Positions 8,976-38,169 of a DNA stretch of 64,000 nt are shown here, piece after piece; the stretch's first letter is position 1; every line of letters starts with the position of its first letter. The translations under genes were made by a program, and so were the position numbers. This stretch comes from Escherichia phage SP27: sequence record LC494302.1; one strand, given 5' to 3'. The notes beneath the pieces are model-generated. The model saw nothing but the letters and a program-made list of their open reading frames with translations, had not been told where the DNA came from and did no database searches.

Positions 8976-9165
8976 AAAATACGAAGTATACACAAATGGA
9001 AAATGGTCTATATCAGTAAACTATATTGACCACACTAAACGAAAAAGATACTTATATTGTGTTAATATTAATTGGTTCCCTGTTGATGACACTTTAGTTA
9101 ATTAAAAATATACTTCCAGATAGATAAATAATATAAAGATGTCATTCCATAATAGGAGAATATAA

Positions 9166-9852: not shown

Positions 9853-9873
9853 TTTTATTTAAACTTAATATAT

Positions 9874-9903
9874 AGCCTCGAATCTATTCGGGGCTTTTTT
9901 TAT
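9874..9903 (+). terminator. Rho-independent terminator
   Basis: AGCCTCGAA-TCTA-TTCGGGGCT hairpin followed by T7. Confidence 0.55.
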
Positions 9904-9946
9904 GCTAAATAAAGTATAATGCCTTATAAAATAAAAAGAGGTTGCT

Positions 9947-10723: not shown

Positions 10724-10734
10724 GGAGATAATGA

Positions 10735-12842
<2,108 letters not shown>

Positions 12843-21519: not shown

Positions 21520-22113
21520 ATGAAAAAGAATGAATTAGATGAAGCAATTAAAGGTTTATCTAATGTATGTTTTAGTGGCGGGGCAGCAGGTGCTGACCGC
21601 CTTTTTTCTATCTATGCAAAAAATAATGGATTTGAAGTTATTAATTTTTCATTCAAAGGTCATGAGCATAGTGTAGATGAAAGTACTATATTAGAAATAC
21701 CATCCAATATTCTATCTGATATTTCTATATTAAATCAACTAAACATTGCATGTTACTCGTTGCAGCGAAAAGTACCAAAACCTGGTTCTTATGTTTACAA
21801 CTTACTTGCAAGGAATAGTTATCAGATACTTAATACAGAAAGAATATATTGTATTGCAAATATCACATCACCAACTAAGGTAAGTGGTGGTACTGCATGG
21901 GCAGTACAGATGTATATGGATTCAGTTGAAAATCCTGAAATTTATTGTTATGATATGAATTCACGTTCAGTATTTTATTTCGATACAGTACTGAAAGAGT
22001 TCACACAAACATTCGTCGTTCCAGCACCACATGGTAACTGGACTGGTATTGGTTCACGCAATGCCACCGAAAAACATATGGAACATTTTATTACATTTTT
22101 CAAGGAAGAATAA
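21520..22113 (+). CDS. Rossmann-like protein with an SLOG/DprA/LOG-type glycine motif
   Basis: FSGGAAGADRL and GGTAWAVQM resemble SLOG-superfamily nucleotide-binding loops; stop overlaps the thyA start. Confidence 0.4.
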   Translation: MKKNELDEAIKGLSNVCFSGGAAGADRLFSIYAKNNGFEVINFSFKGHEHSVDESTILEIPSNILSDISILNQLNIACYSLQRKVPKPGSYVYNLLARNSYQILNTERIYCIANITSPTKVSGGTAWAVQMYMDSVENPEIYCYDMNSRSVFYFDTVLKEFTQTFVVPAPHGNWTGIGSRNATEKHMEHFITFFKEE

Positions 22114-23042: not shown

Positions 23043-23047
23043 ACGAA

Positions 23048-23078
23048 AAGGGAGAACATCAGTTCTCCCTTTTTTATT
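23048..23078. terminator. Bidirectional rho-independent terminator between convergent thyA and the fiber gene
   Basis: GGGAGAAC-ATCA-GTTCTCCC flanked by A-rich upstream and T6 downstream. Confidence 0.65.
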
Positions 23079-25041
23079 ATCTAATTGTTACCAATGTTCT
23101 TCCGTCGAAACGTACATCAGGAGTTGAAGGTATACTAAACACTACGTTAGTGCCGTTAAACGTAACGCTATCGACCTCAACACGAGTATAGACACCAGGA
23201 CTAACCTGTTCCTGTATCTCTGCTGTGACGATGTTTGAGGCTGTTACAGTAAGGGTGTAGTAGTTACCACTTAATACCCAAGATGAAATTGTAAAAGCAT
23301 CGGTTCTCACTGAACCTGAACCAATTGGAACCCATTGACCTTGAACTTTTTGCATTGAAGTACGCTCGGTATTGGAGTATGCAATCATACCATCAACGCC
23401 AACAGAGTTATCAATAGTAGCTAGTACTGGTAATTGGATACCATATCTATTAAAACGTGTTCTTATAGTTCCATTATCATAGATACTTACATCAGCATAA
23501 TTACCCATTGATAGTTTTAAATCAGAACTAACTAATTGGATTGTACTTTGATTAGTAGTACTTTCTAATGTAATTATACCATTAGCTAATAGATTTATAT
23601 TTTTAAATTTATTAGTTGTTCCATTGAAATTAGTGTTTGCTGTAAACGTACTAACTCCATTAACTGTAATTGTATCAGATGCAGCATCGCCTAATGTAGT
23701 ATTACCTTGAATGTTCAAATTACCACTAGCAGTGATATTACTAGCTGATGTATCACCAGTCAATGTACTTGTACCATCAACCACAATATTACCATGAAAC
23801 GCACTTTCACCATTTTTAAATTCAACTTGTACTTTATTCATTGAACTAAATGAAATAATATTACTACTAGCACTTAGTCCAACATTAGTATTGGTTGCAT
23901 TATCAAATCTTAGTACTGGGGTTGATGCTGGGGTTGAAGTTGTTTGGTATAATGTTAATGTTGAATTATTAATTCTAATACGTTCAGTTCCAGCAGTACT
24001 GAAACCAATTGCATCATCTGCTGGATGAAACATACCAGTATTAGCGTCTGACCATTTTGCAGGATCATTACCTGGGTTATTGGTTGGATCAAATGGATTG
24101 TTATTAAATGTCAATGCTGGTGCTGCTGCACTACCATAGACCACACCAAAACGCCCTGAGCCGCTTGTTCCATCATTATACATGGAATCACCAGTTCTAC
24201 GTAAACATTCAATCACAACGTTATCTATGGATGTTTGTACGGTTCCTGCGTTTGTTCTAAATTGACGATGGTTTGCAATCATTACTGTATTGTCATATAA
24301 TACAGAAGCAGCAGAAATGCTTGTTCTTGACTGGCGTAGACGTATGTTTTTATCTTCAGTTATAATGATCCAATCACCATCTGATAGTGCGGTTTGGTTC
24401 ATTGGAACGCCTGAAGCAAATGGTTTGGTTAAGTCAGCATCTGTTGCTAAATTTTTAAGACCATCATGACCAGTACTAGGAATAGATGCAGTAATAATTC
24501 TTGCAAAAGCGTATGTTACAAGTTTAGCACCAGATATATTTGGATTGGAGTCAACATAATATAAAATTTCAATCCAATTACCTTGACCAGTTGGGTTCGT
24601 AGGTGTAAATGTAACCGGACTTGTTTGTGGGTTATTTGCTTCAAAGTGTGCTTGTGCTGCATCCATAATACCACGAACAACATAATAATCACCATTTAGT
24701 GATGCTGCTGGTGCTGGTAGTGGTGTTTGTGCTAAAGGTGGATCAATATCATCTGGGATAGGATTGTATGTACCAACAAACTGTAAACCACTAGTTACTG
24801 AATCTGGTAATTGGGAAGTAAGAAGTTTACCATTTGCATCTAAGTTTGCAAAGCGGCGATATGCCATAGTACCATCTTCAAAATCCAGAACACCTTCAAA
24901 TGATTTCCATTCCTTATTGTATCTAATCATCCCTGATCTTATTACATCAGCGGTTTCTTTTGATGGTGCTTTCGGTAACTCTAAAAAAGATTTACTATCA
25001 ATAATTACACCACCATCACCTCTAATTCGATTTATACTCAT
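23077..25041 (-). CDS. Tail fiber protein (654 aa)
   Basis: N-terminal SGMIRYNKEWKSFEGVLDFEDGT fiber-type motif; G/S/T/N-rich C-terminal part; RBS GAGGAAA. Confidence 0.6.
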   Translation of the reverse strand: MSINRIRGDGGVIIDSKSFLELPKAPSKETADVIRSGMIRYNKEWKSFEGVLDFEDGTMAYRRFANLDANGKLLTSQLPDSVTSGLQFVGTYNPIPDDIDPPLAQTPLPAPAASLNGDYYVVRGIMDAAQAHFEANNPQTSPVTFTPTNPTGQGNWIEILYYVDSNPNISGAKLVTYAFARIITASIPSTGHDGLKNLATDADLTKPFASGVPMNQTALSDGDWIIITEDKNIRLRQSRTSISAASVLYDNTVMIANHRQFRTNAGTVQTSIDNVVIECLRRTGDSMYNDGTSGSGRFGVVYGSAAAPALTFNNNPFDPTNNPGNDPAKWSDANTGMFHPADDAIGFSTAGTERIRINNSTLTLYQTTSTPASTPVLRFDNATNTNVGLSASSNIISFSSMNKVQVEFKNGESAFHGNIVVDGTSTLTGDTSASNITASGNLNIQGNTTLGDAASDTITVNGVSTFTANTNFNGTTNKFKNINLLANGIITLESTTNQSTIQLVSSDLKLSMGNYADVSIYDNGTIRTRFNRYGIQLPVLATIDNSVGVDGMIAYSNTERTSMQKVQGQWVPIGSGSVRTDAFTISSWVLSGNYYTLTVTASNIVTAEIQEQVSPGVYTRVEVDSVTFNGTNVVFSIPSTPDVRFDGRTLVTIR

Positions 25042-25085
25042 TTAAATATTTCCTCAGAATAGATTTATATGATGTATTTATTTTA

Positions 25086-25122
25086 GTTAAAAGAAAAGGC
25101 CAAGCATAGGCTTGACCTTAAA
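25086..25122 (-). terminator. Rho-independent terminator (minus strand)
   Basis: AAGGCCAAGC-ATAG-GCTTGACCTT hairpin with an A-run on the plus strand upstream. Confidence 0.5.
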
Positions 25123-25125
25123 AAA

Positions 25126-25905
25126 TTAACGTATACGTTCAGGAATATCAACACCTTCATATACCCAAGTTGCAGCTTGTTGTGCCTTATAAATTGCATC
25201 AGGATCTAAATCATCAACTGCATCAATTGCTGCACACTGATTGTCACATTCTGTAAACAATTGCTCAATCATAGCAAAGGCTCCAGTGTATAGTTGTGTC
25301 ATTTCAGTAGCAGATAATTTTACAATTGCGTCATCAAGAAAAATAGAAACACTTTCAGAACCTGAAGTGACTTGTGTATAGTAATTAAGAAGCATTTGAC
25401 GACCAGACATATCAGTACTGTAACGATGACCATTGAACATATAACCAGAATTCATACGATTTGTACGTTCTGATATAGTTCTTGCTTTTAAATCAACTTT
25501 AACATCTGCTATTGGCATATCAATATAATGATATGTTTTAAGAACAGTTAGTGCTTTATATTCTTCGGTAGCGTCTTCTAAAAATTCAACAATAGGTTGA
25601 TTTTCATCTTTTAATTTAATAAACTCCAACGGTTGTTCAATAGCATTAACATTTCCAACATTTTTATACACTAACCACCAAAAACCTTCTTCTTTTCTAA
25701 CAGCATCATTAGGTTCTACTGGGGAACCATCTTTACTTGAAATACCATAAAGAGTTCTAATATCACTATAAAGATAACGATAGGTTTGTGGATCTTCTGG
25801 TGTTGCACCAGGACGTTCTTTAAGTCCTTTTACACCAATTGGATTGGAAATAATGTTTCCCAATTCATAATTTTCTTTTGAATTTCCTTTCACATATGTG
25901 AACAT
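25126..25905 (-). CDS. Hypothetical protein in the fiber cluster (possible fiber accessory protein)
   Basis: 259 aa; RBS GTGAGGTAG. Confidence 0.5.
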   Translation of the reverse strand: MFTYVKGNSKENYELGNIISNPIGVKGLKERPGATPEDPQTYRYLYSDIRTLYGISSKDGSPVEPNDAVRKEEGFWWLVYKNVGNVNAIEQPLEFIKLKDENQPIVEFLEDATEEYKALTVLKTYHYIDMPIADVKVDLKARTISERTNRMNSGYMFNGHRYSTDMSGRQMLLNYYTQVTSGSESVSIFLDDAIVKLSATEMTQLYTGAFAMIEQLFTECDNQCAAIDAVDDLDPDAIYKAQQAATWVYEGVDIPERIR

Positions 25906-25969
25906 ATAACTACCTCACTTGTTATGATGGTGTCACCCAAAATGAGTGACACCTTTATTATTATAATTA

Positions 25970-28900
25970 TTAAGCAGTACGTTGTGCAATAAACATATCT
26001 GTTACTGGACTCACACCGTCATAAATGACTTGGTAGATAGTTACAGAGTTTGCAGTTTTGTTCAGTGTGCCATCAACAACCGCATAAGTACCATCAGTAG
26101 TAAAGTTTCTATTACCTGTTGCATCTTGTTTCACATAAATGTATACTGAAGATGCTTTACCACCACCGATTAGACCAGTGATTGGTGCTAGAGTGGTATC
26201 TTGATCTAGAGTGATAAAGTATACGTTGCTAGTACCGTCTGGGGTCCAAGTACCAGTTGGTGCGATAACAGAAGAAGTTACTTGATTAGGAATAACATCA
26301 TATTTTTTAGTAGTTACTGTTGTTGTAGTTAGGTCAGCATTAGTAGTTGTCAATTGACCAGTTACAGTTACATCTTTATCAAATACTGCATTTTCTTTGA
26401 AAGAAGATGTTGCATTGACAGTTAATGTATCAGCAGCAGCGTCACCTAAAACAACACTACCATTTGCAGTCATTAAACCAGTAACAGTTAAAGTACCACC
26501 GATTGTTGCTGCTCCAGTAACAGATGCACTAGCAAGTGTTGCTGCACCAGAAGTAGTAATGGTAGTTACTGAAGTTGCTGCTAGGGTTGCAGTACCTGTT
26601 GCAGAAATATCACCACCAACAGTTAGGTTACCAGAAGTAATTCCAACGGTTCCAGTAATGTTAGCACCACTTGACATCGTTACTGCACCACCAAATGAAC
26701 CAGTAGTAGTTACTTCAAGGGTGTTCCCTTTTAGTAGACCAGTTGCAGTAATACTTGTACCTGCGGTAATACTAGTACCAGCAGCAACACTGTTGGTTGC
26801 AGTTAATGATTTAACAGCTACATCAGAGTTTGCTTGGTTTAGTGTTGCGTTTAGTAGACCAGTTACTGTAAAGTTACCGTTGTTAACTACGTTACCATTG
26901 ATTGTTAAGTTGTTGTTTTGTGAACCAACATCACCAATAGTTGCTGATTTGGAAATCAACTCTGCACCAGAAGTAATGTTACCCGCTGCACTAATAGTGT
27001 CAGCCGCAACAACTGCATAAGGTTCAATTGTTTGACCACTAACGTCAATATCAGCGTTGATACCACCATCTACACGCAAGGAGCCTGCAATGTAAGTATT
27101 AGGGAAAATCTGAACTGTCTCTGGTTGATCACCAATTTTAGTACCGATAATAACATCAGAACCAGTTTTAACTGCACCAGAGGTTGTTAGAGAACCTAAA
27201 GTTGTAGCACCAGTTACACCTAATGTTCCACCAATTGTTGCGTTATTGGTAACTGCTAATGCAGCACCTTCACCATTAAGAGCGATTGATGGAGCAGATA
27301 CTGCACCAGTTACGCCTAATGTGCCACCAATTGTTGCGTTGCCATCTGAATGTAGAGTTGTAGCTACAGAAAGACTGTTAGCAACTACATCAGTACTAGC
27401 TAAATCCAATGCACCTGGGGTTAATGTACCAGTAATGTTAACATTATTACCAAAGGTTGCTGCACCAGTCACATCTAGTGTAGTACTAAATGTACCAGAG
27501 GTTGCAGAGATTGCACCTGAATCTAGTGATCCAACAGTTGCTTTACCAGTTACACCTAAAGTTCCACCAACAGTTCCATTTGTGGTTACATCCAATGTAC
27601 CAGTACTTAGTTCTTGTGCGGTTACCTTACCGGATGCAGTAACAGTTGAAGTGGAAACGCCACCAGTTAGAGTACTAGCACCAGTAACACTTAATGTGGT
27701 TGCAGCAGTTACGCTATTTACGCTAAGATCAGCACCGGATAAGTCCAAACCACCTTCAGGAACAAATACACCCTTAACAGTTAGTTTTTGTACTGTACTA
27801 TCACCTGTTACATCCAAGGTAGAAGCAGTTAAACCACCATTCATACTTGCTGCACCAGTAACACCTAGTGTAGTGGTTACAGTAGCACTATTAAGTGTTG
27901 AACTACCAGAAATATTAGCACTAGGAGCAGTAATAGTTCCAGAATCAACTTGTATACCACCAGCAACAACCTGAATTCCACCAGCATTAACTGTTAGTTT
28001 ACCAGCAGTATTCAATGTATTTGAAACTGTTGTTGCACCAGTTAAAGTTGTAGTACCAGTTACACCTAAGTTACCAGAAATAGATGGACTACCTGTAATA
28101 TTACCAGTAGTTAGTATCAAATCAGTACCTACGGTAGTGGAGCCAGTACTTTCTAGTGTCACACCAACGATGTTTGCAGAACTTAGGTTAATAGTACCAT
28201 CAACAGTTAAGTTACCTTGAACGGTTGCATCACCTAGAGAAGTTAATGTCTTCACAGACACATCAGTTGTGCTAAGATCAATAACACCCGCAGTTAGTGT
28301 TCCAGATACTGCTAAATTACCAGTAATCGCGGTATTTTTAGTAATGGATACATTTTCTGCCGCTGAAGTAATAGAACCAACAGTAAGTACACCACCAACA
28401 GTTGCGTTATTAGTTACATTTAGAGCAGTTCCAACACCAGATAGTGTTGCTGACCCACCAGTAATTGCACCTGAGATTGAAGCTGTTGCTGCTGAAACAT
28501 CACCAGAAACTACTGCATTTGTTGCATTTAGAGCAGACACTGTAACTTCAGTACTTTGAACTTTAGGTAGAACGTTGATACCTTCTGCACTACTAACTGT
28601 AATAATACCAGTACTTGTTAGAGATTTAACAGATACATCAGCACCACTTAAATCAACTGTACCAGAAACAACAAGATCTCCACCAATATTTGCTCCAGCG
28701 GTAGTAGTAATGGATTTTGCACTTACATCAGTTGTGCTCAAATCAATTGCACCTGGTGTTACTGTACCAGAAACTGTTAGGTCACCAGTAATAGATGTAT
28801 TATTGGAAATAGATACACCATCAACGTTACTAATTGTTGGGGTTTCTACAGAAACTGCTTTAACTTTACCTGAAGAAGTTACGTCAGCTACGGTAGATGC

Positions 28901-31495
28901 ACCAGTAACATTCAAATTAGTAATATTTGCAGTTGTTGAACCAAGGGTTGCAATAGTTGCATCAGTACTTTGAAGTTTAGGTAGAACACTACTAATTGTG
29001 GATTCATTACTAACAATTGCACCAGTACTAGTTAAAGATTTGACAGTAACATCAGCCGTAGTAAGATCTACTGTACCATTAACAGTTAGGTTACCACCAA
29101 TAGTTGCACCAGCAGTAGTAGTAATGGATTTAGCATTAACATCAGTTGTTGCTAGATCGATAGAGCCTGGAATAACTGCACCAGTAACGGTTAGGTCACC
29201 AGTTACATTTGTATTATTGGAAATAGTGACACCACTTGCATTTGAAATGGTTGGGGTAACCAACGATGCAGTTGTAGTTTCACCAGTTACAGTTAAAGTT
29301 GACCCAACTAGAACAGATGAGCTTGAGTAAATTGTACCCAAATTAGCAGATCCGGTAACAGTTATATCATCAGCATTAACAGTAGGAGCCGTTATGGTAG
29401 TACTATTAAGTACTGGAAGTACGTTAGCATTAACAAGATCATTACTTTTAACAATACCAGAAGTAGTTAATGATTTAACATTAAGGTCGGCTGCTGATAA
29501 ATCAAAAGAGCCTTGAACTACTAAATCACCACCAATAGTTGCACCAGCAGTAGTAGTGATTGATTTAGCATTAATATCGGTAGTGCTCAAGTCTAGAGAA
29601 CCAACAGTTAAGCTACCAGTAATATCAACATTTTCTGTAAAGTTAGTATTACCACTAATAGTTGGTGCAGTCAGAGTTGTTGCACTAATATTAGTACCGT
29701 TAATTGTTTGTCCACTTACAGTCCCACTCGCAGTGATAGTAGGAGCCGTTACTTCAGTAGATGCACTAATTGTTGGTGCAGATACAGAAGTTGTACCAGT
29801 AATAGAACCAGAACTTACTGAACCAGCGGATAATGCACCAGAAAGAGTTGCAGTTGTACCAGCAATATCACCAGTAACAGTTAGTTTAGCACCCACGGTA
29901 GTGTTACCAGTACTTTCAAGTGTTGCACCTTTAATATTTGCTGCCGCGACAACAGAATTAGGTGTTAGATCCTGCCCACTAACATCAACAGTTAGCCCAG
30001 TTACTGTTCCAGTAAATTCAACATCATTAAGAATTGCTTTACCACCAACTTGTAGGAATGGTGTACCTGGAGCTTGTGTTTCGTTACCAGTAATAGTTAG
30101 GTAATCTAGTTTGTTTAGACCGTTACCAGTAATACCATAAGTGGAAAGAGAAGCGTTACCGAAAGTTGCTGTTTTAAGAACGTTCAATGTAGAAGGAGAA
30201 ACGACTTCTGATTGAACTTCGTTAGGTAGAATAACTGTTGGGCGTTGACCTGGTGCAGTATATCCAAAACCTAGTTTCACTGCCGCATCTTGACTATTTT
30301 GACCTAAGCTGATAGCTTTAAAGGATGCAGTACTGTTATAACCAGTAATATTAGAACCAAGAGTAACACCACCAACTAATGAAGTTACACCAGTAACGTT
30401 CAAAGATACTGCATTAATATCGTCTAGTTGGAACGTTCCACCAAGAAGACCAGAAACATTAATGTTATTAAAATTAGCAGTACCAGTACTTTCGATATTT
30501 GGAATAGTTGCAGTTCCGGTTACTTCAAAGTCAGCAACTTTAGTTTTTCCTTTTTGAACTTCTAATAGTGGTGTGTCTGGTGATTGTGTATTGTTACCAG
30601 AAACTGTTAGATAATCTAATTTGTTTAGACCATTACCAGTAATACCATAAGAAGATAATGACGCATTACCAAAAGAAGCAGAGGTCAATACTGTCAAGTT
30701 TGCAGGTGACATTAGCTCGGACTGAATTTCGTTTTGTAGAATAACAGTTGGGCGTTTACCAGGAGCAGTGTAAGGGAAGCTTAATCTGAAGGTTTGTGAT
30801 TCAGAGTTAGAACCAATACGAATGTCTTTAAAAGTAGCAGTACTGTTAATACCAGTTACGTTAGCACCGAAAGTTACTGCACCTTGTTGGTTAGATGCAC
30901 CAGTAACGTTCAATGTTACTGCATTTAAGTCAGATAGATTAAACTCACCACCAAGTGTACCACTAATTGTCACATCGTTAAATGTAGCAGTACCAGTACT
31001 ACTAATATCTGTTGTACTTACATTAGTAATTTCTGCGGTATTAGCATTAATTTTATCAAATGCAGCAGTAGTCCCAACATCAGCAGTAATATTACCTTTA
31101 AATGCTGTTGTTTCAGCAACTTCTAAGTTTTTAACTTTAGTTGCTTGTAGAGTGGTTGTACCAGCAGTTTGTGTAAAATCAGAACCAACTGATACAGTAC
31201 CGTTAAAGGTAGCGTTTGAATTAATTGTTGCTGTATCAGACCCGACAACTGCACTACCGATTGTAGTATTACCCTCAACACCAAGACCACCAGAAAGTGT
31301 TGCTTTGCCACCTACATCTAAAGTAGATGTAATGTTGGCAGTTGATGATTCAATGGCAGTAAAAGTTGCATTTGCAAAAGTTACAGTACCATTTACAGTT
31401 AGGTTATTGTTGAAAACAGCATTTCCTTTGACTAAAAGATCCTTACCAACCGTACCAGCACCAGTAATATCTAAGTCAGTTTTTATTGAGTACAT
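25970..31495 (-). CDS. Very large tail fiber / surface fiber protein (1841 aa) with tandem repeats
   Basis: T/G/S/A/V-rich; about 140-aa units (IDLSTTDVxAKSITTTAGAxIGGxLxVxG…VKSLTxxG) repeated at least 4 times, plus a 2-copy N-terminal duplication; RBS GGAGGG. Confidence 0.65.
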   Translation of the reverse strand: MYSIKTDLDITGAGTVGKDLLVKGNAVFNNNLTVNGTVTFANATFTAIESSTANITSTLDVGGKATLSGGLGVEGNTTIGSAVVGSDTATINSNATFNGTVSVGSDFTQTAGTTTLQATKVKNLEVAETTAFKGNITADVGTTAAFDKINANTAEITNVSTTDISSTGTATFNDVTISGTLGGEFNLSDLNAVTLNVTGASNQQGAVTFGANVTGINSTATFKDIRIGSNSESQTFRLSFPYTAPGKRPTVILQNEIQSELMSPANLTVLTSASFGNASLSSYGITGNGLNKLDYLTVSGNNTQSPDTPLLEVQKGKTKVADFEVTGTATIPNIESTGTANFNNINVSGLLGGTFQLDDINAVSLNVTGVTSLVGGVTLGSNITGYNSTASFKAISLGQNSQDAAVKLGFGYTAPGQRPTVILPNEVQSEVVSPSTLNVLKTATFGNASLSTYGITGNGLNKLDYLTITGNETQAPGTPFLQVGGKAILNDVEFTGTVTGLTVDVSGQDLTPNSVVAAANIKGATLESTGNTTVGAKLTVTGDIAGTTATLSGALSAGSVSSGSITGTTSVSAPTISASTEVTAPTITASGTVSGQTINGTNISATTLTAPTISGNTNFTENVDITGSLTVGSLDLSTTDINAKSITTTAGATIGGDLVVQGSFDLSAADLNVKSLTTSGIVKSNDLVNANVLPVLNSTTITAPTVNADDITVTGSANLGTIYSSSSVLVGSTLTVTGETTTASLVTPTISNASGVTISNNTNVTGDLTVTGAVIPGSIDLATTDVNAKSITTTAGATIGGNLTVNGTVDLTTADVTVKSLTSTGAIVSNESTISSVLPKLQSTDATIATLGSTTANITNLNVTGASTVADVTSSGKVKAVSVETPTISNVDGVSISNNTSITGDLTVSGTVTPGAIDLSTTDVSAKSITTTAGANIGGDLVVSGTVDLSGADVSVKSLTSTGIITVSSAEGINVLPKVQSTEVTVSALNATNAVVSGDVSAATASISGAITGGSATLSGVGTALNVTNNATVGGVLTVGSITSAAENVSITKNTAITGNLAVSGTLTAGVIDLSTTDVSVKTLTSLGDATVQGNLTVDGTINLSSANIVGVTLESTGSTTVGTDLILTTGNITGSPSISGNLGVTGTTTLTGATTVSNTLNTAGKLTVNAGGIQVVAGGIQVDSGTITAPSANISGSSTLNSATVTTTLGVTGAASMNGGLTASTLDVTGDSTVQKLTVKGVFVPEGGLDLSGADLSVNSVTAATTLSVTGASTLTGGVSTSTVTASGKVTAQELSTGTLDVTTNGTVGGTLGVTGKATVGSLDSGAISATSGTFSTTLDVTGAATFGNNVNITGTLTPGALDLASTDVVANSLSVATTLHSDGNATIGGTLGVTGAVSAPSIALNGEGAALAVTNNATIGGTLGVTGATTLGSLTTSGAVKTGSDVIIGTKIGDQPETVQIFPNTYIAGSLRVDGGINADIDVSGQTIEPYAVVAADTISAAGNITSGAELISKSATIGDVGSQNNNLTINGNVVNNGNFTVTGLLNATLNQANSDVAVKSLTATNSVAAGTSITAGTSITATGLLKGNTLEVTTTGSFGGAVTMSSGANITGTVGITSGNLTVGGDISATGTATLAATSVTTITTSGAATLASASVTGAATIGGTLTVTGLMTANGSVVLGDAAADTLTVNATSSFKENAVFDKDVTVTGQLTTTNADLTTTTVTTKKYDVIPNQVTSSVIAPTGTWTPDGTSNVYFITLDQDTTLAPITGLIGGGKASSVYIYVKQDATGNRNFTTDGTYAVVDGTLNKTANSVTIYQVIYDGVSPVTDMFIAQRTA
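28200..29700 (-). repeat. In-frame tandem DNA repeats (about 420-430 bp period, 3-4 imperfect copies) inside the fiber gene
   Basis: Recurring block ccaccaatagttgcaccagcagtagtagtaatggatttagca… near 28690, 29100 and 29530; boundaries approximate. Confidence 0.6.
30050..30820 (-). repeat. Two-copy segmental duplication (about 480 bp apart) inside the fiber gene
   Basis: ttgtttagaccgttaccagtaataccataag… at about 30110 and 30600 (protein GNASLSxYGITGNGLNKLDYLT twice); boundaries approximate. Confidence 0.55.
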
Positions 31496-31588: not shown

Positions 31589-31628
31589 ATAATAAAAACC
31601 AGACTTATTTAGAACAAGTCTGGTTAAT
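31589..31628. terminator. Hairpin terminator with T-runs on both sides
   Basis: CCAGACTT-(9-nt loop)-AAGTCTGG flanked by AAAAA upstream and TTAATTTTTTTT downstream. Confidence 0.45.
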
Positions 31629-31633
31629 TTTTT

Positions 31634-32530
31634 TTACTTACCAGAGATGACAATCTTACCACTGAAAGAAATATCAGAAGTGAAGATTACATCACCAGTA
31701 CTACTAATTTGTGTATCAGTCACTACCAATTCAAATGGAGATGACGAAACACTCCCAGGTGTTTTATTTGCATAAATTGAAATATACAAATTATCTGGTG
31801 TTTGATTGTGTTCAGATGCAGGAATAGTGATTGTAAAATCACCATCACTAGAAACCCAATCTGCTTGGTTTACCAATTTACTATAAGGTACTGTCATTGT
31901 TGTTGCTCCTATAATGTTTACTTTAACACTTGCATAATCTGTGATTTGACCAATCACATCAATTGTTATATCCCCAATACCACTAACTGTTACTGTGGTT
32001 TGGAATACTGATTCCAATGCAACATTACCTGGGTCACCTTGTAGTTGGATCATAATATCAGAACCTCTACCATGAACTGATTCTGGTAGTGTGTAAGTAT
32101 AATGATCAGTAGTATCTGGCACTAATGTAAATGCAGAAACAGGAACTATTTCAGTAGTTACATATGAGCTATCAGTCCCAGGTGAGCTACCTTTAAATGG
32201 TTTCCAAATACCAAGATCTTTAATATAAATTTGAAGAACATTAGTACTATCAACCAAAAAGTAAACGTCACCATCTAGACCGATCGAATCGGATGGTGCT
32301 GTTGTTCCACGTAAGATACCAGAACTACCACCACCACTGTGTGCGTTTAAATATCCTAATGTAACCAAGTGTGTGTTTGCAGTTGGTTCACCTGCTGAAA
32401 TTGGAAGAAGTTGTGTTCCTGAGTAGTTTTGAATTTGCACAACACTACCATTTGTGGTAATCTGTGCACCATTCTTCCCAAGAATGAAGGACTTCTTCAT
32501 GGTTCCTTCTAAATTAGAAAAAACTGCCAT
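31634..32530 (-). CDS. Tail fiber/spike protein with the conserved N-terminal MAVFSNxEGTM module (298 aa)
   Basis: N-terminus MAVFSNLEGTMKKSFILGKNGAQI nearly identical to the next gene; divergent C-terminus; RBS AAGGAG. Confidence 0.55.
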   Translation of the reverse strand: MAVFSNLEGTMKKSFILGKNGAQITTNGSVVQIQNYSGTQLLPISAGEPTANTHLVTLGYLNAHSGGGSSGILRGTTAPSDSIGLDGDVYFLVDSTNVLQIYIKDLGIWKPFKGSSPGTDSSYVTTEIVPVSAFTLVPDTTDHYTYTLPESVHGRGSDIMIQLQGDPGNVALESVFQTTVTVSGIGDITIDVIGQITDYASVKVNIIGATTMTVPYSKLVNQADWVSSDGDFTITIPASEHNQTPDNLYISIYANKTPGSVSSSPFELVVTDTQISSTGDVIFTSDISFSGKIVISGK

Positions 32531-32546
32531 TTTAATATAATCTCCT

Positions 32547-34688
32547 TTATGGTAGGGTTATGTAAGTTACGGGTTGGGCAGCTTTTAATGCTGCACCAGC
32601 GGCAGTTGCTGTTATGATAGGATCTGCAATATCAATTCTATATACGTTGTTTACAACATACACTGCACGAGTTATATACGTTCTCAAATCACCACCATTT
32701 TCACCAGCACCGGATATAATGATCTCAGTACCAGCAGCTTTTGCATATTGGTTTTCACCCCATGACACACCCAATGCTTCTATGTATGTTTGTCCTGCTA
32801 CCGTTTGTCTAATTGTGTCATATTTTCCGAAAAAAGAACCACCAACAGTTACAATATATTTTCCACCCGATTGTTTATGAATAATCGTGCCTTCAGAGAA
32901 ATAGCGTCCCCCAGGAAAAGTATCGTATGGAATATAATATTGCTCAACTACAGGTATCAGTACTGGGCCACGGTGTCCTGTACCATCGATTGCAGTTGTA
33001 ACTTTAAAGTTATTAGATGATTGGTCTATTCTGTCTACATACATTTTAGAAAAACTATATTTTGAAACATTACAATCATCTTGAACAACACAGTTAGTCC
33101 AATTAGTATAAGTATATTTAGAGCGAGTATAGATACCACCACCTTCGCCTTCGGTAGAGAGGTGTTGACCAATTACATCTAATTCTTTAGTTCTAATATC
33201 ACTAAATTTAGATGATGATGGCAAACCACGCCAAAGGATTTTAGAACAGGTGATATTGCTCAATTCTGTATTATTTAACCAATTATCAGAACCGGAAGTA
33301 TAAACAAGTATAGAAGACTCTGGAATATAGAGATTAGAAATTTTAAAGTTTCTAGGTGGTCCAGCAAAACGACCAGAAGTTACACCCCAGTTTATTGAAA
33401 CCATTCTATTTGTGATAGAAGGATCATTAAGCAAATGACCAGTCAACCCATCAATAATGAATTCTTTCGAACCATAAGTTATAACACCAGCAGTGGTTAA
33501 TCCAGTACCAACAGAAACTAAAGATGATGGATAAACTTCATTATTAAGTATTTTAAAGTCCATTCCTAATTCAACGTGGATACATTGTCTAACATTATAT
33601 AGTCTGTTATTTTTAATAACAAAGTTTCTGACATATTGTGTATCTGGTGCATCTAAACCATAAGGACCAGAACCAGCAACGCCAATACCAATGCCCCAGT
33701 TTGAAAGTGGGATTGGAGCGTTAGAACCATCAACGTTTTCAATTACGTTTCCTTCAATCACAAAACCATCAGGATAATGTGAGTTAATTACGTTTAGTTC
33801 AATTGCATCACCATATATATCATGTATGTGGTTATATGAATATCTACCAACCTTCATTTTCTCACCAGTACCTTGTTGAAGAACACCATACTTACATTGG
33901 GTCATTTCATTAAAGCAAAAATCTATTGTTCCTGGTTGTGTCATACCTTGCATTAAAAATGCAGCAGTACTTGTGATGTTTATAAATTTATTAAAATAAA
34001 ACTTACCATCGCCACCGAAGAATTTTAAATAACATCCAGTAAGTGTTGCAAATTGTATTTGGGAATTAATAACGGATACCATAGTACCACCATTACCAGT
34101 AATAGTTCCCCCAAACCAAGTTACATCTTCCAGGTATATTGCAGTTTTGATACGGTAATTACCACCAGCCTGAATTTGGATTTTATTTTCTTTAGCATAA
34201 GCAGCACATAAATTTACAGCAGCAGTGTCATCAGTTTCGCCATCACCTTTAGCACCAAATTCTTCTGGTGTTATATAAAACTGGGCCTGTTGAACTGTAC
34301 CTCCAGTAATAAGTCCGATGAAATCGCCACCATTTTTACTGGATAGAACTTTTTTATTAATGTATAATGATTTTACCCATGTACCATTACTTTTTGCAAA
34401 AATATCAACAATACCATCTTCATCAATTTGAAAATACGTATTATTGTTCTTTCCTACATCATCGGTAGGGGGTACAACACCAAATAATGCATTAGGGTTA
34501 TCTTCAAGATATTTTACGTTAACTGCTGAATTAGGGTCAGATGAAGTTCCTACCTTCAGTGGTAGGAACTGTTCTCCTAGATAATCTTTTATAGAAACTG
34601 AATCATTGATAAAATTTATTGAAGCACCTTTTTTCCCCAATATGAATTTGGGCTGCATAGTTCCTTCAAAATTAGAAAATACTGCCAT
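32547..34688 (-). CDS. Tailspike-like protein with the shared N-terminal module and a beta-helix-like body (candidate depolymerase)
   Basis: N-terminus MAVFSNFEGTMQPKFILGKKGASI; body has repeated N/G-rich short strands; RBS GGGAGG. Confidence 0.55.
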   Translation of the reverse strand: MAVFSNFEGTMQPKFILGKKGASINFINDSVSIKDYLGEQFLPLKVGTSSDPNSAVNVKYLEDNPNALFGVVPPTDDVGKNNNTYFQIDEDGIVDIFAKSNGTWVKSLYINKKVLSSKNGGDFIGLITGGTVQQAQFYITPEEFGAKGDGETDDTAAVNLCAAYAKENKIQIQAGGNYRIKTAIYLEDVTWFGGTITGNGGTMVSVINSQIQFATLTGCYLKFFGGDGKFYFNKFINITSTAAFLMQGMTQPGTIDFCFNEMTQCKYGVLQQGTGEKMKVGRYSYNHIHDIYGDAIELNVINSHYPDGFVIEGNVIENVDGSNAPIPLSNWGIGIGVAGSGPYGLDAPDTQYVRNFVIKNNRLYNVRQCIHVELGMDFKILNNEVYPSSLVSVGTGLTTAGVITYGSKEFIIDGLTGHLLNDPSITNRMVSINWGVTSGRFAGPPRNFKISNLYIPESSILVYTSGSDNWLNNTELSNITCSKILWRGLPSSSKFSDIRTKELDVIGQHLSTEGEGGGIYTRSKYTYTNWTNCVVQDDCNVSKYSFSKMYVDRIDQSSNNFKVTTAIDGTGHRGPVLIPVVEQYYIPYDTFPGGRYFSEGTIIHKQSGGKYIVTVGGSFFGKYDTIRQTVAGQTYIEALGVSWGENQYAKAAGTEIIISGAGENGGDLRTYITRAVYVVNNVYRIDIADPIITATAAGAALKAAQPVTYITLP

Positions 34689-34702
34689 TATGACATCCTC
34701 CC

Positions 34703-35830
34703 TTAAATATTATCTTGAATCGGTTGGATAGGAGCTTGCCATGAAAGAGTACAAATAATTTCCATTTTTCCATAAGGACTGTTGTTAACAGAATCGTTGA
34801 ATACACATGAAATAATTTCATCAACATCGGATGCTGCATGATTAGTTTCATTAACAATAAAACGCATCTGACGATTGATATCAAAGTAGGAAGTTGGTGC
34901 AATTACAGTCCCACCAATATCTTCTTGTGCTTCACCACCAAAACGTACAAACATATCAGTTACAGGAAGAGAATAAGGTTGTATAACGTTTACATCAATA
35001 TTAGAAACTACATATCCAGCAGGACACGTACCAATAACTAATAGTGCGTTAGTCCATGAGCTATCTATTGTATTTCTAATAGAAATTGTATCTTTACCTG
35101 GTGCACCTGGTTCGCCTTGTATACCTTGAATACCTTGCTGACCTTCTTTACCACGGAATAGAATACCCTCACTCCACTCTTTTGAAGGAGGGGTAGTTGT
35201 AGTTACTTCATCAACATAATATAGTTTTCCATCAGTGTTGTTATAAAAACAATAATCAACTGGAAGATTTTCAATACTTGGAAATTGATCACCACTGCTA
35301 TCAATATGGAAACGACCACGCGGACCTTGTTCACCACGGAAAGGTATACCATCACTCCAAGTAGCAGTTACACTTTGATAGAAATAAAGTTTACCATCTT
35401 GAGTATTATAAAATGTATAGTTATCAAAAAGACCAGTTGTTGGGAAAGTAGTTCCAGCACTATCAATGTGGAACGGCTTACCCGCTTCACCCGTATCACC
35501 TTTACCAAACTCAACACTAATCCATGTACTTGTCGGATCTTGTGCATCATTTGATTTAAAGTATAGAGTACTGGTATTGTTAGCCAAGCTTAAGTAGCAC
35601 CACCCAAGTGGTTCACCAACTTTAAATTGTTCGGAAGGAATTTCAAAACCAATCTCATTAGGATAAAAGTTTTTACCATTCTCGCCATTCTGTCCTACAA
35701 CAAGACCTAAATCTTGAATTGTGTTATCTGCATAGGTTACAATTAAATGCCCAGCACCATTAATAACTAGACTTTTGATGCCGGAGTTATTACATGAACC
35801 ACTGGACCCATTGTTAAATGAAATTGTCAT
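34703..35830 (-). CDS. Tail fiber-like protein with a collagen-like G-X-Y stretch and an internal duplication
   Basis: GKEGQQGIQGIQGEPGAPGKD; FHIDSAGTTFP…YNTQDGKLYFY repeated as FHIDSSGDQFP…YNNTDGKLYYV; ATG 35830 with AAGGGA RBS. Confidence 0.55.
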   Translation of the reverse strand: MTISFNNGSSGSCNNSGIKSLVINGAGHLIVTYADNTIQDLGLVVGQNGENGKNFYPNEIGFEIPSEQFKVGEPLGWCYLSLANNTSTLYFKSNDAQDPTSTWISVEFGKGDTGEAGKPFHIDSAGTTFPTTGLFDNYTFYNTQDGKLYFYQSVTATWSDGIPFRGEQGPRGRFHIDSSGDQFPSIENLPVDYCFYNNTDGKLYYVDEVTTTTPPSKEWSEGILFRGKEGQQGIQGIQGEPGAPGKDTISIRNTIDSSWTNALLVIGTCPAGYVVSNIDVNVIQPYSLPVTDMFVRFGGEAQEDIGGTVIAPTSYFDINRQMRFIVNETNHAASDVDEIISCVFNDSVNNSPYGKMEIICTLSWQAPIQPIQDNI

Positions 35831-35940
35831 AATATTTCCCTTGTATGAGTTAATGTCATATACCAATATTTATCAGTACAAAATACATTTCGTTATCATT
35901 AATAAATAAATGAAAGTTCACTACTAAAAGGGCTTAAACA

Positions 35941-36438
35941 ATGGCATTAAGATCAAAAGACTTTCTCTTCAGAAGAAAAACAAAAGATGGTTCATGGCAA
36001 GATTTTCCTGAATCTGATAGCTGGTATCCAGCTAACTTGGATTATCACTGGAATGAACAAACGTTACCACTCGCAAGTGGTGGCTACTATGGCTGTACTA
36101 CAGGTTTACATACTATTTCATTTACACTACGTAATTTTATTGGTAGAATTTATGTGTTAGCTACATTAGCTAGTAATCCTACTGATGATGATTGGTTTCC
36201 AATTAAATTCACTGAAAGTTGTAATTATTATCTTGAATTTACTGATATGGTTATTTTAAATCCAAATGGTGGGGATTTAATTAGACAACAAGGAACTACC
36301 GGAACATTTGCTGAAACAGTAACTGGTAATTTTACTTACCTTAAAGTTGGTATAGACCGTGATTATATTAGTAAGTATCCATCAGATGTCCAAAAAAGTT
36401 TAGCTGGGAAGTTAGAACAAATTTTAATTAACTACTAA
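35941..36438 (+). CDS. Hypothetical protein (165 aa)
   Basis: ATG with AAAGGG RBS. Confidence 0.45.
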   Translation: MALRSKDFLFRRKTKDGSWQDFPESDSWYPANLDYHWNEQTLPLASGGYYGCTTGLHTISFTLRNFIGRIYVLATLASNPTDDDWFPIKFTESCNYYLEFTDMVILNPNGGDLIRQQGTTGTFAETVTGNFTYLKVGIDRDYISKYPSDVQKSLAGKLEQILINY

Positions 36439-36447
36439 GGATTAGAA

Positions 36448-37056
36448 ATGAAATTAGAAACAGAACAACCAAAACTATTTGTTAAAGGTCATGTCCTAAT
36501 TACTGACGTTACTGATCCATCAAATCAAAAAATCGTTTTAGATAAATCTAACGCTATTCACCCTGAAAATATGAGTACTGCCATTGCTAATGCGTTAGCA
36601 TATAATCAAGACAGTACTGGTATTCCTATTGGTTCTATTAGCGAGATGCGTTTTGGTAATGGTGGTACAGTAGTTTTAAGTACTGGTCGTGTTACTTATA
36701 AAAAACCACGTGTTACATCATTCGGTGGTTTGTATTCACAAACATATTTGAAAAAAATCAACCCACGAATTACGGCAGGTATTGATTCACAATACAATAA
36801 TATTACAACTGTACATATACCAGGACAGTCCTATACTGATATTGTATGTATTTGTACTCTAGGGTTAGGTGAACCATCCGACCAAGGTGTAAGCTCAGGG
36901 ACAAGCATGGATGGAACTTATGTATTTGATGAATTGGGATTGTACACGGATGGCGATAGTGGTATTCCTTTAACCCATATCATTTTTCACCCAGTTGAGA
37001 AAAGTGCAAACCGTGTCTTACAAATTAAATACACAGTTCGTGTACAATTACAATAA
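36448..37056 (+). CDS. Hypothetical, probably structural, protein (202 aa)
   Basis: ATG with AAGGA RBS; lies inside the fiber/baseplate region. Confidence 0.45.
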   Translation: MKLETEQPKLFVKGHVLITDVTDPSNQKIVLDKSNAIHPENMSTAIANALAYNQDSTGIPIGSISEMRFGNGGTVVLSTGRVTYKKPRVTSFGGLYSQTYLKKINPRITAGIDSQYNNITTVHIPGQSYTDIVCICTLGLGEPSDQGVSSGTSMDGTYVFDELGLYTDGDSGIPLTHIIFHPVEKSANRVLQIKYTVRVQLQ

Positions 37057-37068
37057 TGGGGACATATA

Positions 37069-38169
37069 ATGAGTGTTAATTATACAATTTATAGAAGTAA
37101 TGGTAGTGTTTATGCTACCATTCCAAATAATGTTATTTTAGGACCAAACCAGCCCGGAAGTAACCCAGTTCCGTTAAATTTAGTTGGTAGAAATAAAGTA
37201 AGTTACGGTCAAGCATGGAATGAAAACTTTTTACATTTAGTTGAAAATTTCAGTTCAGCATCTGCACCACGTGGCAACGTCAATGGTCAACTTTGGTATA
37301 GAAACACTGGTAGTACTGGTGAGTTATTGATATCATTAGTTGATAATGCTAGACAACCTGCTGATATGGTAAGTGAAGCTGAATGGGCGTCTATCCCTAT
37401 GATTACTGTTTTTAACACAGTACCTGATGGTGAAAATAGTGTTATGGGTCGTATGGTATTAACTAGTAACGGTGATTCTCTTCGTGTGTTAATGAAAAAC
37501 AAAGAATGGCGTGAAATTCAAACATCTAGACCAGAAAACAAAGAGTATTCATCATTATTAGATATTAACTATGATAATGGTAAAAAATATATAGAGTTCA
37601 CACAAAGTAATAGTACTAAACCAATTGCGTATTTTAACTTAGGTGGTACTTCACAAGTAGATACAAATAACTGGACAACATTAACTAATGGTACTGGTGT
37701 CTTTGAATTTGGTAGCAACTATTTCTATGAATTAAAAATTATGATTAGAGAAGTAAATGATTCTTCTGGTGAGATAGTTTCTCTTCCATACAATTCAAAA
37801 ACCTTTTTTATAAAAGGGCAATTTTATGTAGATAATCAAGGAACTTTTGTTCCTGGTTCGGTGGGGGCAAGTCAAATGCCAGACCCACGTAGGATTACAC
37901 AATTAGAATCCATAAAAGATGTTATTACCAGTAGTCGCCCAAACTGGGACGTAAATATTGTTATTAATGGTGTAGATCCATCTATCCCAAATCCTAATGG
38001 AACATCTAAAGCTGATTATGAAAATTGGGTTATCAATTCTCTAAACTCAAATAAAAATTTAGGTTTTCGAGTTGATGGTAGCATTAGTAATCTAACTGCT
38101 GGTGAATCCGTTAAACTACAAGCATCCGTGTTGTTAAATATTACAGGTATTCCGATTATTGGAGTATAA
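37069..38169 (+). CDS. Hypothetical, probably structural, protein (366 aa)
   Basis: N/S/T/G-rich ORF; followed by a terminator. Confidence 0.45.
   Translation: MSVNYTIYRSNGSVYATIPNNVILGPNQPGSNPVPLNLVGRNKVSYGQAWNENFLHLVENFSSASAPRGNVNGQLWYRNTGSTGELLISLVDNARQPADMVSEAEWASIPMITVFNTVPDGENSVMGRMVLTSNGDSLRVLMKNKEWREIQTSRPENKEYSSLLDINYDNGKKYIEFTQSNSTKPIAYFNLGGTSQVDTNNWTTLTNGTGVFEFGSNYFYELKIMIREVNDSSGEIVSLPYNSKTFFIKGQFYVDNQGTFVPGSVGASQMPDPRRITQLESIKDVITSSRPNWDVNIVINGVDPSIPNPNGTSKADYENWVINSLNSNKNLGFRVDGSISNLTAGESVKLQASVLLNITGIPIIGV

Follow-up and report, generated by a model that had tools for sequence, protein, structure and literature searches.

Gene organization of the locus

The window is the whole 64,000-nt stretch of Escherichia phage SP27 (LC494302.1) that was analyzed, and all positions refer to it. 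Three open reading frames lie on the minus strand where a sequence-only reading of this DNA had placed them, at 31634-32530 (298 aa, p298), 32547-34688 (713 aa, p713), and 34703-35830 (375 aa, p375), and the p375 start at 35830 agrees with homologs and with phAPEC6 gp253. The locus is 100% identical over 4501 nt to that of the Escherichia jumbo phage phAPEC6 (Asteriusvirus). p375, p713, and p298 form a three-gene operon that runs on the minus strand from 35830 to 31634, ends in a hairpin terminator, and sits inside the conserved tail/baseplate structural block of phAPEC6. Only 14 nt separate the p375 stop from the p713 start and 16 nt the p713 stop from the p298 start, with ribosome-binding sites before p713 (AAGGGAGG) and before p298 (AAGGAG). 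A terminator is annotated in the hairpin stretch downstream of p298 in the record of phage G17. The intergenic region 35831-35940 is presumably the promoter region; a sigma-70 scan of it gave no score above shuffles.

31597..31625, minus strand: terminator-like hairpin, a 13-bp stem followed by TTTATTAT, beginning 8 nt past the p298 stop codon
31634..32530, minus strand: p298 (121Q gp572, GAP32_221, CBB_227), third gene; phrog_10468 'virion structural protein', E 1.5e-100
32547..34688, minus strand: p713 (121Q gp573), second gene, putative colanidase tailspike; phrog_6117 'colanic acid degradation', E 3e-264
34703..35830, minus strand: p375 (phAPEC6 gp253, 121Q gp574, RaK2 gp062, CBB_228), first gene; phrog_13565 'tail protein', E 3.8e-225
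35831..35940, no strand assigned: divergent intergenic region between p375 (minus strand) and the plus-strand virion genes at 35941-38169

The phAPEC6 GenBank record lacks the p713 CDS and three neighboring CDS. With four intact structural genes thus missing from the annotation, the published virion proteome is probably distorted.

A shared N-terminal module in p298 and p713

The N-termini of p298 and p713 were claimed to be almost the same over 25 residues and to diverge completely thereafter. The likeness is real and far beyond chance, but it extends over about 105 residues rather than 25 (BLASTP: 41/109 identities, 38%, E 1e-19). Residues 1-25 are identical at 18 of 25 positions (local-alignment z = 18 against shuffles), and residues 26-112 of p298 and 26-107 of p713, when tested alone, give z = 18.6 with none of 2000 shuffles as good. 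Because the residues past 25 are significantly alike on their own, the two proteins do not diverge completely at that point; the likeness ends at about residue 105-110, and the remaining parts give z = -0.3. The module occurs in only two copies within the 64-kb window, in p298 and p713, and each copy can be divided into two sub-parts.

34368..34688, minus strand: p713 N-terminal module, aa 1-107
34500-34688, minus strand: p713 module sub-part A, aa 1-63
34368-34499, minus strand: p713 module sub-part B, aa 64-107
32195..32530, minus strand: p298 N-terminal module, aa 1-112; shares 60% identity with RaK2 gp061w, a module that stands alone
32327-32530, minus strand: p298 module sub-part A, aa 1-68
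32195-32326, minus strand: p298 module sub-part B, aa 69-112

Sub-part A (about 65 aa) follows the pattern MA[VI][FY]SN..GTM..F.LGK.G ... P....[HD]AVT..Y, while sub-part B (about 45 aa; G[TV]..P....G..G..Y........[IL]..[IV][YF].K..G.W) is one unit of a kind that forms tandem repeats in other fiber proteins. The AF2 model of the module, which is of moderate confidence (pLDDT 40-57 for aa 1-10 and 41-70), has no convincing match to any solved anchor domain, and neither the fold nor the sequence of a CBA120-TSP-type (D1/D2, gp10-like) N-terminal anchor was found in it.

That a common module bears different C-terminal bodies held up well, as the same N-terminal element is present on unrelated tailspikes and fibers elsewhere. 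In metagenomes, sub-part A stands at the N-terminus of a Peptidase_S74 tailspike, a beta-helix tailspike, and BNR-propeller fibers, and one metagenomic locus encodes two sub-part-A tailspikes. RaK2 gp061w is the bare module (115 aa) and was detected by MS/MS in RaK2 virions (Table S3, PMC3622015). Members of the p298 family combine the module with an Ig-like body; fusion of the module to a colanidase is restricted to Asteriusvirus. Two module copies per genome are found only in Asteriusvirus-type Escherichia phages and Salmonella SD phages, with one copy in all other relatives listed. The module gene lies directly downstream of a full-length p375 homolog in 18/18 viral contigs. We infer from this distribution that the module fixes p713 and p298 to the virion. 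Modules of the p713 type group in a clade of their own, outside all those of the p298 type (37-39% identity), so the two proteins may not use the same site.

p713, a putative colanidase tailspike

32550..34367, minus strand: p713 putative colanidase body, aa 108-713; Phi92 gp150 homology begins at aa 96

The 713-aa protein had been proposed as a beta-helical depolymerase, and homology to a solved structure supports this and points to a colanidase of the Phi92 gp150 type. The p713 body matches the solved chain of gp150 from phage Phi92 (Justusliebigvirus) along its full length, aa 96-712 pairing with chain residues 11-623 of PDB 6E0V/6E0W (phmmer E 1.8e-235); the right-handed beta-helix is read from this gap-poor alignment. 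Both proteins belong to phrog_6117 and to the precomputed Pfam family PF27800 WcaM, and the Pfam family Pect-lyase_RHGA_epim matches p713 at a sub-threshold 24.3 bits (cut-off 27). The body is also 57% identical over 617 aa to aa 189-801 of gp032 from the Phi92-like phage muut. As gp150 is reported to hydrolyze colanic acid at the beta-1,4 glucose-fucose bond (PMC13450770), this level of identity suggests that p713 is a colanic-acid depolymerase.

The muut gp032 N-terminus (188 aa) is unrelated to p713, and homology starts at p713 aa 96. The Phi92-type protein comprises 804 aa with an unrelated 188-aa N-terminal region, whereas p713 comprises 713 aa with a 105-aa module, and the alignments show the former region replaced at the domain boundary by the jumbo-phage module of about 105 aa. 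Across Asteriusvirus, p713 is kept at 59-100% identity. It is absent from the phAPEC6 virion MS table (PMC7247149) and from the JP4 virion MS list; both negatives are weak, because the phAPEC6 record lacks a p713 CDS and p375, too, is missing from the JP4 data set. The 121Q record annotates gp573 by function and not as 'structural'. A 1-nt indel in phage JNE01 leaves the enzyme body encoded apart from the module.

p298, a conserved virion protein

31637..32194, minus strand: p298 C-terminal beta-sandwich region, aa 113-298

Relatives of p298 align over 100% of its length at 41-100% identity and come from phages of Escherichia, Salmonella, Cronobacter, Yersinia, and Erwinia; a search with the N-terminal module adds relatives infecting Pectobacterium, Serratia, and Xanthomonas. 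No C-terminal swap was seen among the isolated relatives, and p298 contains generic beta-sandwiches only, with no recognizable binding or catalytic domain. CBB_227 was found in CBB virions (5 peptides, 32% coverage). The proposal that p298 is an interchangeable receptor-binding protein is therefore not borne out; full-length conservation across phages of many host genera is the mark of a core structural protein rather than a swappable host-range cassette, and by its sequence p298 looks like the former.

p375, a virion protein with collagen-like segments

35507..35830, minus strand: p375 N-terminal domain, aa 1-108, with a G-X-Y run of 3 triplets at aa 46-54
35336..35506, minus strand: repeat unit 1, aa 109-165; 3 G-X-Y triplets and the beta unit FHIDS...YTFYN..DGKLY...W..G..FR
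35153..35335, minus strand: repeat unit 2, aa 166-226; tandem duplicate of unit 1
35090..35152, minus strand: collagen-like run, aa 227-247; 7 G-X-Y triplets
34706..35089, minus strand: predicted C-terminal jelly-roll domain, aa 248-375

The homologs of p375 are full-length at 42-93% identity, plus one at 31%, and aa 109-277 match phrog_3904 'tail fiber protein' (E 4.5e-9). A collagen-like G-X-Y stretch, as previously described, is present, but it is short (3+3+3+7 triplets), with runs of three triplets at aa 46-54, 111-119, and 166-174 and of seven at aa 227-247. Most of the G-X-Y glycines are invariant or nearly so among 49 homologs; G227 and G230 are invariant and G233, G239, and G242 nearly so. 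The Pfam Collagen family (PF01391) matches aa 227-245 with 16.9 bits (E 0.0055), below its cut-off of 27.2, while the homolog P0140 has long collagen repeats and a PF01391 match. The conserved glycines and P0140 make 'collagen-like segments' a fair description of p375, though PF01391 membership is not. The duplicated segment is likewise a genuine tandem duplication (pairwise z = 22.8, 0/3000 shuffles; hhalign profile-profile probability 99.4%, E 1e-21, 54% identity), yet its unit measures about 55-60 aa rather than 35, aa 111-165 and 166-226 each comprising three G-X-Y triplets and a beta unit.

In the AF2 model, the N-terminal domain contains predicted beta strands (pLDDT 42-91), and the C-terminal domain adopts a jelly-roll fold that resembles trimeric phage decoration proteins, a fold match that does not equal homology. 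These fold data are monomer predictions; p375 is presumably a trimer held by its short collagen-like segments. The protein (gp253) is abundant in phAPEC6 virions, where 14 peptides cover 65.6% of it, among the highest coverages (PMC7247149), and CBB_228 was found in CBB virions with 13 peptides and 44% coverage. In RaK2 virions, MS detected gp061w but not the p375 homolog gp062 (PMC3622015), a result that does not favor an obligatory complex of p375 with the module. Since a module-bearing gene always comes immediately after that of p375, the protein is a candidate partner or socket of the module, which is speculation at this stage.

Downstream genes and the number of receptor-binding proteins

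23077..31495, minus strand: downstream structural genes pointed out by the sequence-only reading (p1841, p259, and p654), none with the N-terminal module
25970-31495, minus strand: long fiber p1841; CBB homolog in virions, JP4 homolog found by MS
25126-25905, minus strand: DUF4376 protein p259; CBB homolog in virions
23077-25041, minus strand: p654; CBB homolog in virions, JP4 homolog found by MS

The homologs of these genes, CBB_226, CBB_225, and CBB_224, are all present in CBB virions. An estimate of four or five distinct receptor-binding proteins is nevertheless an over-count, because the evidence shows one depolymerase, together with several virion fiber or structural proteins that are at most candidates for receptor binding.

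Discussion

We consider it fairly probable that the locus is a three-gene operon in which a colanidase is carried on a module shared with p298, the module serves as a virion anchor, and p375 stands apart. Held by the module, p713 would sit on the virion either beside p298, the ancestral core protein, or in a site of the kind that p298 uses, and the Asteriusvirus lineage would thereby mount an exopolysaccharide-stripping enzyme. During infection, the colanidase may remove the colanic-acid slime that coats E. coli or Salmonella cells and so open the way for fibers and baseplate to their receptors. p375 would be a core virion protein in its own right, with a tandem pair of beta units and a jelly-roll head at its C-terminus. 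The general slime capsule of E. coli and Salmonella consists of colanic acid and protects the cells from phages; a virion-borne colanidase would help explain how these jumbo phages reach their receptors. If the module is an anchor, it marks an attachment point for new depolymerases in poorly understood phages that are candidates for therapy, and it would give a function to three clade-conserved proteins listed as 'hypothetical' or 'structural'.

It is unlikely that the module is instead a trimerization or folding neck and p713 a soluble enzyme, freed at lysis to strip neighboring cells. The end motif of sub-part A, 'P....DAV..Y[LV]', does show weak alignments (E 0.012 to 1) to necks or stalks in trimeric autotransporter adhesins, the phage hyaluronidase HylP, and T7-like fibers, and a free enzyme would fit the absence of p713 from two virion proteomes (phAPEC6 and JP4), the functional annotation of 121Q gp573, and the separate enzyme body of JNE01. 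However, the 115-aa RaK2 module has nothing to trimerize and is itself a virion protein, module-bearing CBB_227 is present in virions, in Phi92 the homologous body forms part of a tail protein that has an N-terminal region of its own, and both MS negatives are weak. Quite improbable is the original view of p298 and p713 as interchangeable host-range receptor-binding proteins on one anchor, with C-termini swapped in relatives. A shared N-terminal module with unrelated C-termini is what such proteins would have, and metagenomic relatives do place different enzymatic bodies on sub-part A; yet whole-length conservation of p298 (100% coverage at 41-100% identity) holds in phages of five or more host genera, with no swap in isolated relatives, p713 is retained across Asteriusvirus, and the generic beta-sandwiches of p298 offer no recognizable binding or catalytic domain.

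We also doubt that p375, possibly with p298, decorates the tail or capsid or forms a 'hair/whisker' component there instead of serving as a receptor-binding fiber of the baseplate, in which case its jelly roll would sit on the particle with the collagen-like stalk pointing outwards. Its high coverage in phAPEC6 and in the hairy phage CBB is consistent with such a role, as are the unassigned trimeric appendages on the phAPEC6 capsid and tail and the 12 elongated proteins at its collar and distal tail; it was not detected in RaK2. Against it, the p375 gene lies in the tail/baseplate block adjoining a gp15-like sheath completion gene, and it is kept in RaK2, which has no whiskers according to the CBB authors, and in GAP32, whose whiskers they doubt. 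Furthermore, a 375-aa chain with 16 G-X-Y triplets would measure an estimated 25 nm, compared with 119-nm hairs in CBB, and the jelly-roll match is one of fold and not of homology.

The anchor account admits a bolder and more tentative extension, which is possible but which we would not expect to hold, namely that the module is an undescribed portable 'plug' of the RaK2-like jumbo-phage superclade and that one tail socket, possibly p375, takes alternative plugs. The occupants would then be the bare plug (RaK2 gp061w), the plug with an Ig-like body (p298), and the plug with an enzyme, the latter being a colanidase here and S74-chaperone or beta-helix tailspikes or BNR-propeller fibers in uncultivated relatives. 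If true, this would offer a natural plug-and-play site to re-arm jumbo phages with new depolymerases.

Comparison with known systems

The locus follows an ordinary modular tail-protein design, to which it adds another example and one uncharacterized module. Its practical point is the graft, in which the well-characterized Phi92 gp150 body sits on a short N-terminal module specific to jumbo phages. p298 and p375 share full-length homology and gene order with core virion proteins of RaK2-like jumbo phages; RaK2 gp061w/gp062, CBB_227/CBB_228, and GAP32_221/GAP32_222 are their orthologs in the same order, with MS evidence of virion location for gp061w, CBB_227, and CBB_228. The p298 module and p375 are 60% and 70% identical to RaK2 gp061w and gp062, respectively. 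RaK2 differs in having the bare 115-aa module only, and those relatives listed that fall outside Asteriusvirus carry one module copy each and lack a colanidase gene at the locus.

In architecture, p375 recalls C1q/TNF-like proteins and trimeric phage cement proteins (KHP40 gp16), which combine a collagen-like stalk with a jelly-roll head, although its runs are very short and split by two beta units, and no sequence homology to either group was found. Lastly, p298 and p713 share a design principle with the branched multi-tailspike systems of CBA120 (TSP1-4) and RaK2 (gp526-gp534), in which a conserved N-terminal attachment part carries variable enzymatic bodies, several per virion (PMC10253068).

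Results

Three genes on the minus strand make up the block; each is given here with the annotation of its counterpart in Escherichia phage 121Q.

34703-35830 (-): p375, 375 aa; 121Q gp574, 'structural protein'
32547-34688 (-): p713, 713 aa; 121Q gp573, 'colanic acid-degrading protein'
31634-32530 (-): p298, 298 aa; 121Q gp572, 'structural protein'

The genes are organized as an operon: p375, p713, and p298 lie 14 and 16 nt apart and have good ribosome-binding sites in between. A terminator-like hairpin (13-bp stem and T-rich tail) begins 8 nt past the p298 stop codon, and the next gene, encoding the 1841-aa long fibre p1841 (25970-31495), starts 138 nt past that stop. Scans of the region for DNA tandem repeats and sigma-70 promoters returned nothing informative. 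Further strong terminator-like hairpins lie at 25119-25096 (-), 3' of the 259-aa gene (p259, 25126-25905), and at 23045-23074 (+), between the convergent thymidylate synthase and 654-aa (p654, 23077-25041) genes.

Over the 4.5-kb stretch, the DNA shows 100% identity to Escherichia phage vB_EcoM_phAPEC6 (MK817115, genus Asteriusvirus, 352.6 kb), and the window is therefore known RaK2-like jumbo myophage DNA; identity to 121Q, PBECO4, SHEFM2K, UB, and others is 98.8-100%. Only gp253 (p375) is annotated among the three genes in the phAPEC6 record, which has no CDS feature for p298, p713, p259, or p654. The numbers gp254, gp255, gp257, and gp258 are skipped, and the four unannotated open reading frames are intact in the sequence. 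At 21520-22113, an intact 197-aa open reading frame (DprA-like in RaK2; gp567 in 121Q) is represented in the phAPEC6 annotation only by two small fragments, which is another sign of incomplete annotation here.

The N-termini of p298 and p713 align with 41 of 109 residues identical (E 1e-19). The alignment was cut into pieces, each scored against shuffled sequences. Residues 1-25 gave z = 18, and residues 26-112 against 26-107 alone gave z = 18.6 (0 of 2000 shuffles), with both halves of this stretch significant (z = 9.1 and 13.0), while the leftover C-terminal parts gave z = -0.3. What the two proteins have in common is therefore a module of roughly 105 aa; the sequence-only reading had correctly seen the N-terminal similarity, but not that it extends well past the 25 residues after which complete divergence was proposed. 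The 64-kb window holds no third copy. Pfam records list no family for p298 and PF27800 alone for p713; a Pfam search with the module and 19 related N-terminal sequences found no family above threshold, and PF27114 'Phage_tail_beta' is recorded for two metagenomic tailspikes with the related head.

An earlier word-indexed search with a two-sequence module profile yielded five short proteins and was replaced by an exhaustive profile HMM search of 1.84 billion representative proteins, which resolved the module into two parts. The first, sub-part A (aa 1 to about 67), aligns with the very start of proteins varying widely in length, including P0157 (780 aa; pectate-lyase-like with a Peptidase_S74 chaperone), P0158 (705 aa; Beta_helix), and P0178 and P0179 (1344 and 1218 aa; BNR/sialidase-type propeller fibres). 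P0157 and P0158 are encoded 6 kb from each other on a single 120-kb metagenomic contig (SRR18476386_53; 8001-18343 of locus L005), so that virus too has two tailspikes with a common N-terminal head, and the locus is a second multi-tailspike locus using sub-part A. The two flank three genes (902, 199, and 919 aa) with their own common N- and C-terminal motifs. Among isolated phages, sub-part A is limited to the RaK2-like group and the 440-kb Salicola phage SCTP-2. A PDB profile search with sub-part A gave weak motif-level matches (E 0.012 to 1) to adhesin necks, HylP, and T7-like fibres, a possible resemblance that we treat as a lead and not as a result.

The second, sub-part B (aa 65 to about 111), aligns with a unit that many fibre-like proteins carry up to 13 times, frequently amid collagen repeats. 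PDB profile matches to designer beta-propellers (Cake, Scone, Bagel) were rejected as spurious: each stretch scored E of about 27-60, the whole-sequence E-values were inflated by perfect repeats, and the match was a short G-DG-Y hairpin motif. Homology of sub-part B to the p375 repeat was likewise rejected, as the topology is alike without statistical support (hhalign probability 3-5%). Separately, an N-terminal motif of p654 (G-M-I-R-Y-N ... F-E-G; aa 30-60) recurs near the C-terminus of metagenomic fibres headed by sub-part A (P0178, P0179, P0201, and P0255; example GMMRYNTDNSRYEVYQGAAW), and therefore the module and a p654-like element can share one polypeptide elsewhere.

Residues 96-712 of p713 match the solved structure of Phi92 gp150 (PDB 6E0V/6E0W; E 1.8e-235), which supports the proposal that this protein is a candidate beta-helical depolymerase; a colanidase is already annotated in relatives (e.g., 121Q gp573). 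Cleavage of colanic acid by gp150 itself is reported to occur at the Glc-Fuc bond. The body is 57% identical over 617 aa to its orthologue in the Phi92-like phage muut. That 804-aa orthologue has an unrelated 188-aa N-terminus, whereas p713 carries the jumbo-phage module there. The homology begins at residue 96, right where the similarity to p298 stops, and thus p713 is a chimera, joined at a domain boundary, of the jumbo-phage module and a Phi92-type body, with colanidase activity predicted by homology. In Escherichia phage JNE01 (OR670491; L010 2344-4486), a 1-nt indel right after the module breaks the colanidase gene into two frames, one of 141 aa that holds the module only and resembles the bare module of RaK2, and one of 588 aa for the body. 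The 141-aa product is recorded on 28 contigs, which makes a lone sequencing error improbable.

By tblastn, the module is present in 71 of 50,697 phage records, all RaK2-like jumbo phages, with hosts that include Escherichia, Klebsiella, Salmonella, Erwinia, Yersinia, Cronobacter, Serratia, Pectobacterium, and Xanthomonas. A double copy is confined to the Asteriusvirus-type Escherichia and Salmonella SD phages, the other relatives listed having one per genome. In GAP32 and CBB, the p298 homologue directly follows the p375 homologue with no colanidase between. In RaK2, the gene 3' of the p375 homologue (gp062) is the bare module gp061w (115 aa, 60% identical), which retains no remnant of the p298 C-terminus. 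At this locus (L003), gp061w (9001-9348) is directly followed by the p654 homologue gp060w (9513-11045; 51% identity over aa 1-340, with an internal deletion), and the long fibre and DUF4376 genes are absent. In all 18 IMG/VR contigs with a full-length p375 homologue (43-99% identity), a module-bearing gene lies directly 3' on the same strand.

The p713 module might have been a recent duplicate of the resident p298 module. In a neighbour-joining tree, however, the p713-type modules (p713, P0143, and P0004) fall outside all p298-type modules, RaK2 included, and the colanidase module is therefore no recent copy of that of p298. The two types are 37-39% identical, whereas members of the p298 family share at least 49%; DNA identity over the first 75 nt is only 71%.

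p375 is conserved full-length across the clade. Its G-X-Y runs comprise 3, 3, 3, and 7 triplets, and most of their glycines are invariant or nearly so among 49 homologues; the collagen-like stretch noted at first sight is thus supported by conservation, but the runs are short and the Pfam Collagen score lies below cut-off. The internal duplication is firm (z = 22.8; hhalign probability 99.4%, E 1e-21), although its unit measures about 55-60 aa (three triplets and a beta unit) rather than the 35 aa first proposed. The C-terminal jelly-roll domain and the conserved runs suggest a putative trimer that pairs a collagen-like stalk with a jelly-roll head. In the 416-aa homologue P0140, long collagen repeats replace both beta units, and a 960-aa protein on a 462-kb viral contig (L029 4978-7860) joins p375-like units with a sub-part B unit.

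p375 is a virion protein in phAPEC6 (14 peptides, 65.6% coverage; PMC7247149), and module proteins are virion proteins in relatives: RaK2 gp061w was detected by MS/MS with 2 peptides and 26% coverage (Table S3, PMC3622015), and the p298 homologue CBB_227 with 5 peptides (32%), alongside the p375 homologue CBB_228 with 13 (44%). The p375 homologue gp062 went undetected in virions of RaK2, and neither the phAPEC6 nor the JP4 virion list includes p713. Both lists are weak tests, since the same four structural genes (gp254, gp255, gp257, and gp258) are missing from the phAPEC6 record and its MS table alike, and p375 too is missing from the JP4 list; in CBB virions, the counterparts of three of these four were well detected.

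Discussion

The module is probably the part that docks these proteins to the virion. The strongest argument for such a role is that in RaK2 it is a virion protein by itself, and that elsewhere it forms the N-terminus of many unrelated bodies. The colanidase would then travel on the particle and remove colanic acid during adsorption, and p375 could, more speculatively, be the partner of the module.

Four or five distinct receptor-binding proteins had been proposed for this phage, a count that the evidence does not sustain; it gives one depolymerase and several fibre or structural proteins. Homologues of p1841 and p654 are virion proteins in relatives, and the two proteins have short repeats in common and lack the module. 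The long fibre has 1841 aa in this phage and 1959 aa in UB; in JP4 and a GenBank assembly it has 2129 aa (25970-31495 in the window, compared with L006 13192-19071 and L007 13194-19583). These lengths suggest repeat-number variation in the fibre shaft among near-identical relatives. In UB, an additional gene of 455 aa separates the p259 and p654 homologues. The flagellum is the receptor of the relative fENko-Kae01 (PMC11218385) and has been suggested as that of the Asteriusvirus phage SHEFM2K (PMC11895373). A link to Rcs and colanic acid was sought in fENko-Kae01, where the resistant mutant is an rcsBC deletion with normal adsorption and is uninformative on capsule blocking.

In the literature consulted, we found no description of the 105-aa module common to gp572 and gp573, of its build from two parts, or of the fact that RaK2 gp061w is the same module; nor did we find the exchange of anchors with respect to Phi92 gp150 or the architecture of gp253. 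Mounting different enzymatic bodies on one conserved N-terminal part for attachment is a well-known design, as in the TSPs of CBA120 and the fibres gp526-534 of RaK2 (PMC10253068).
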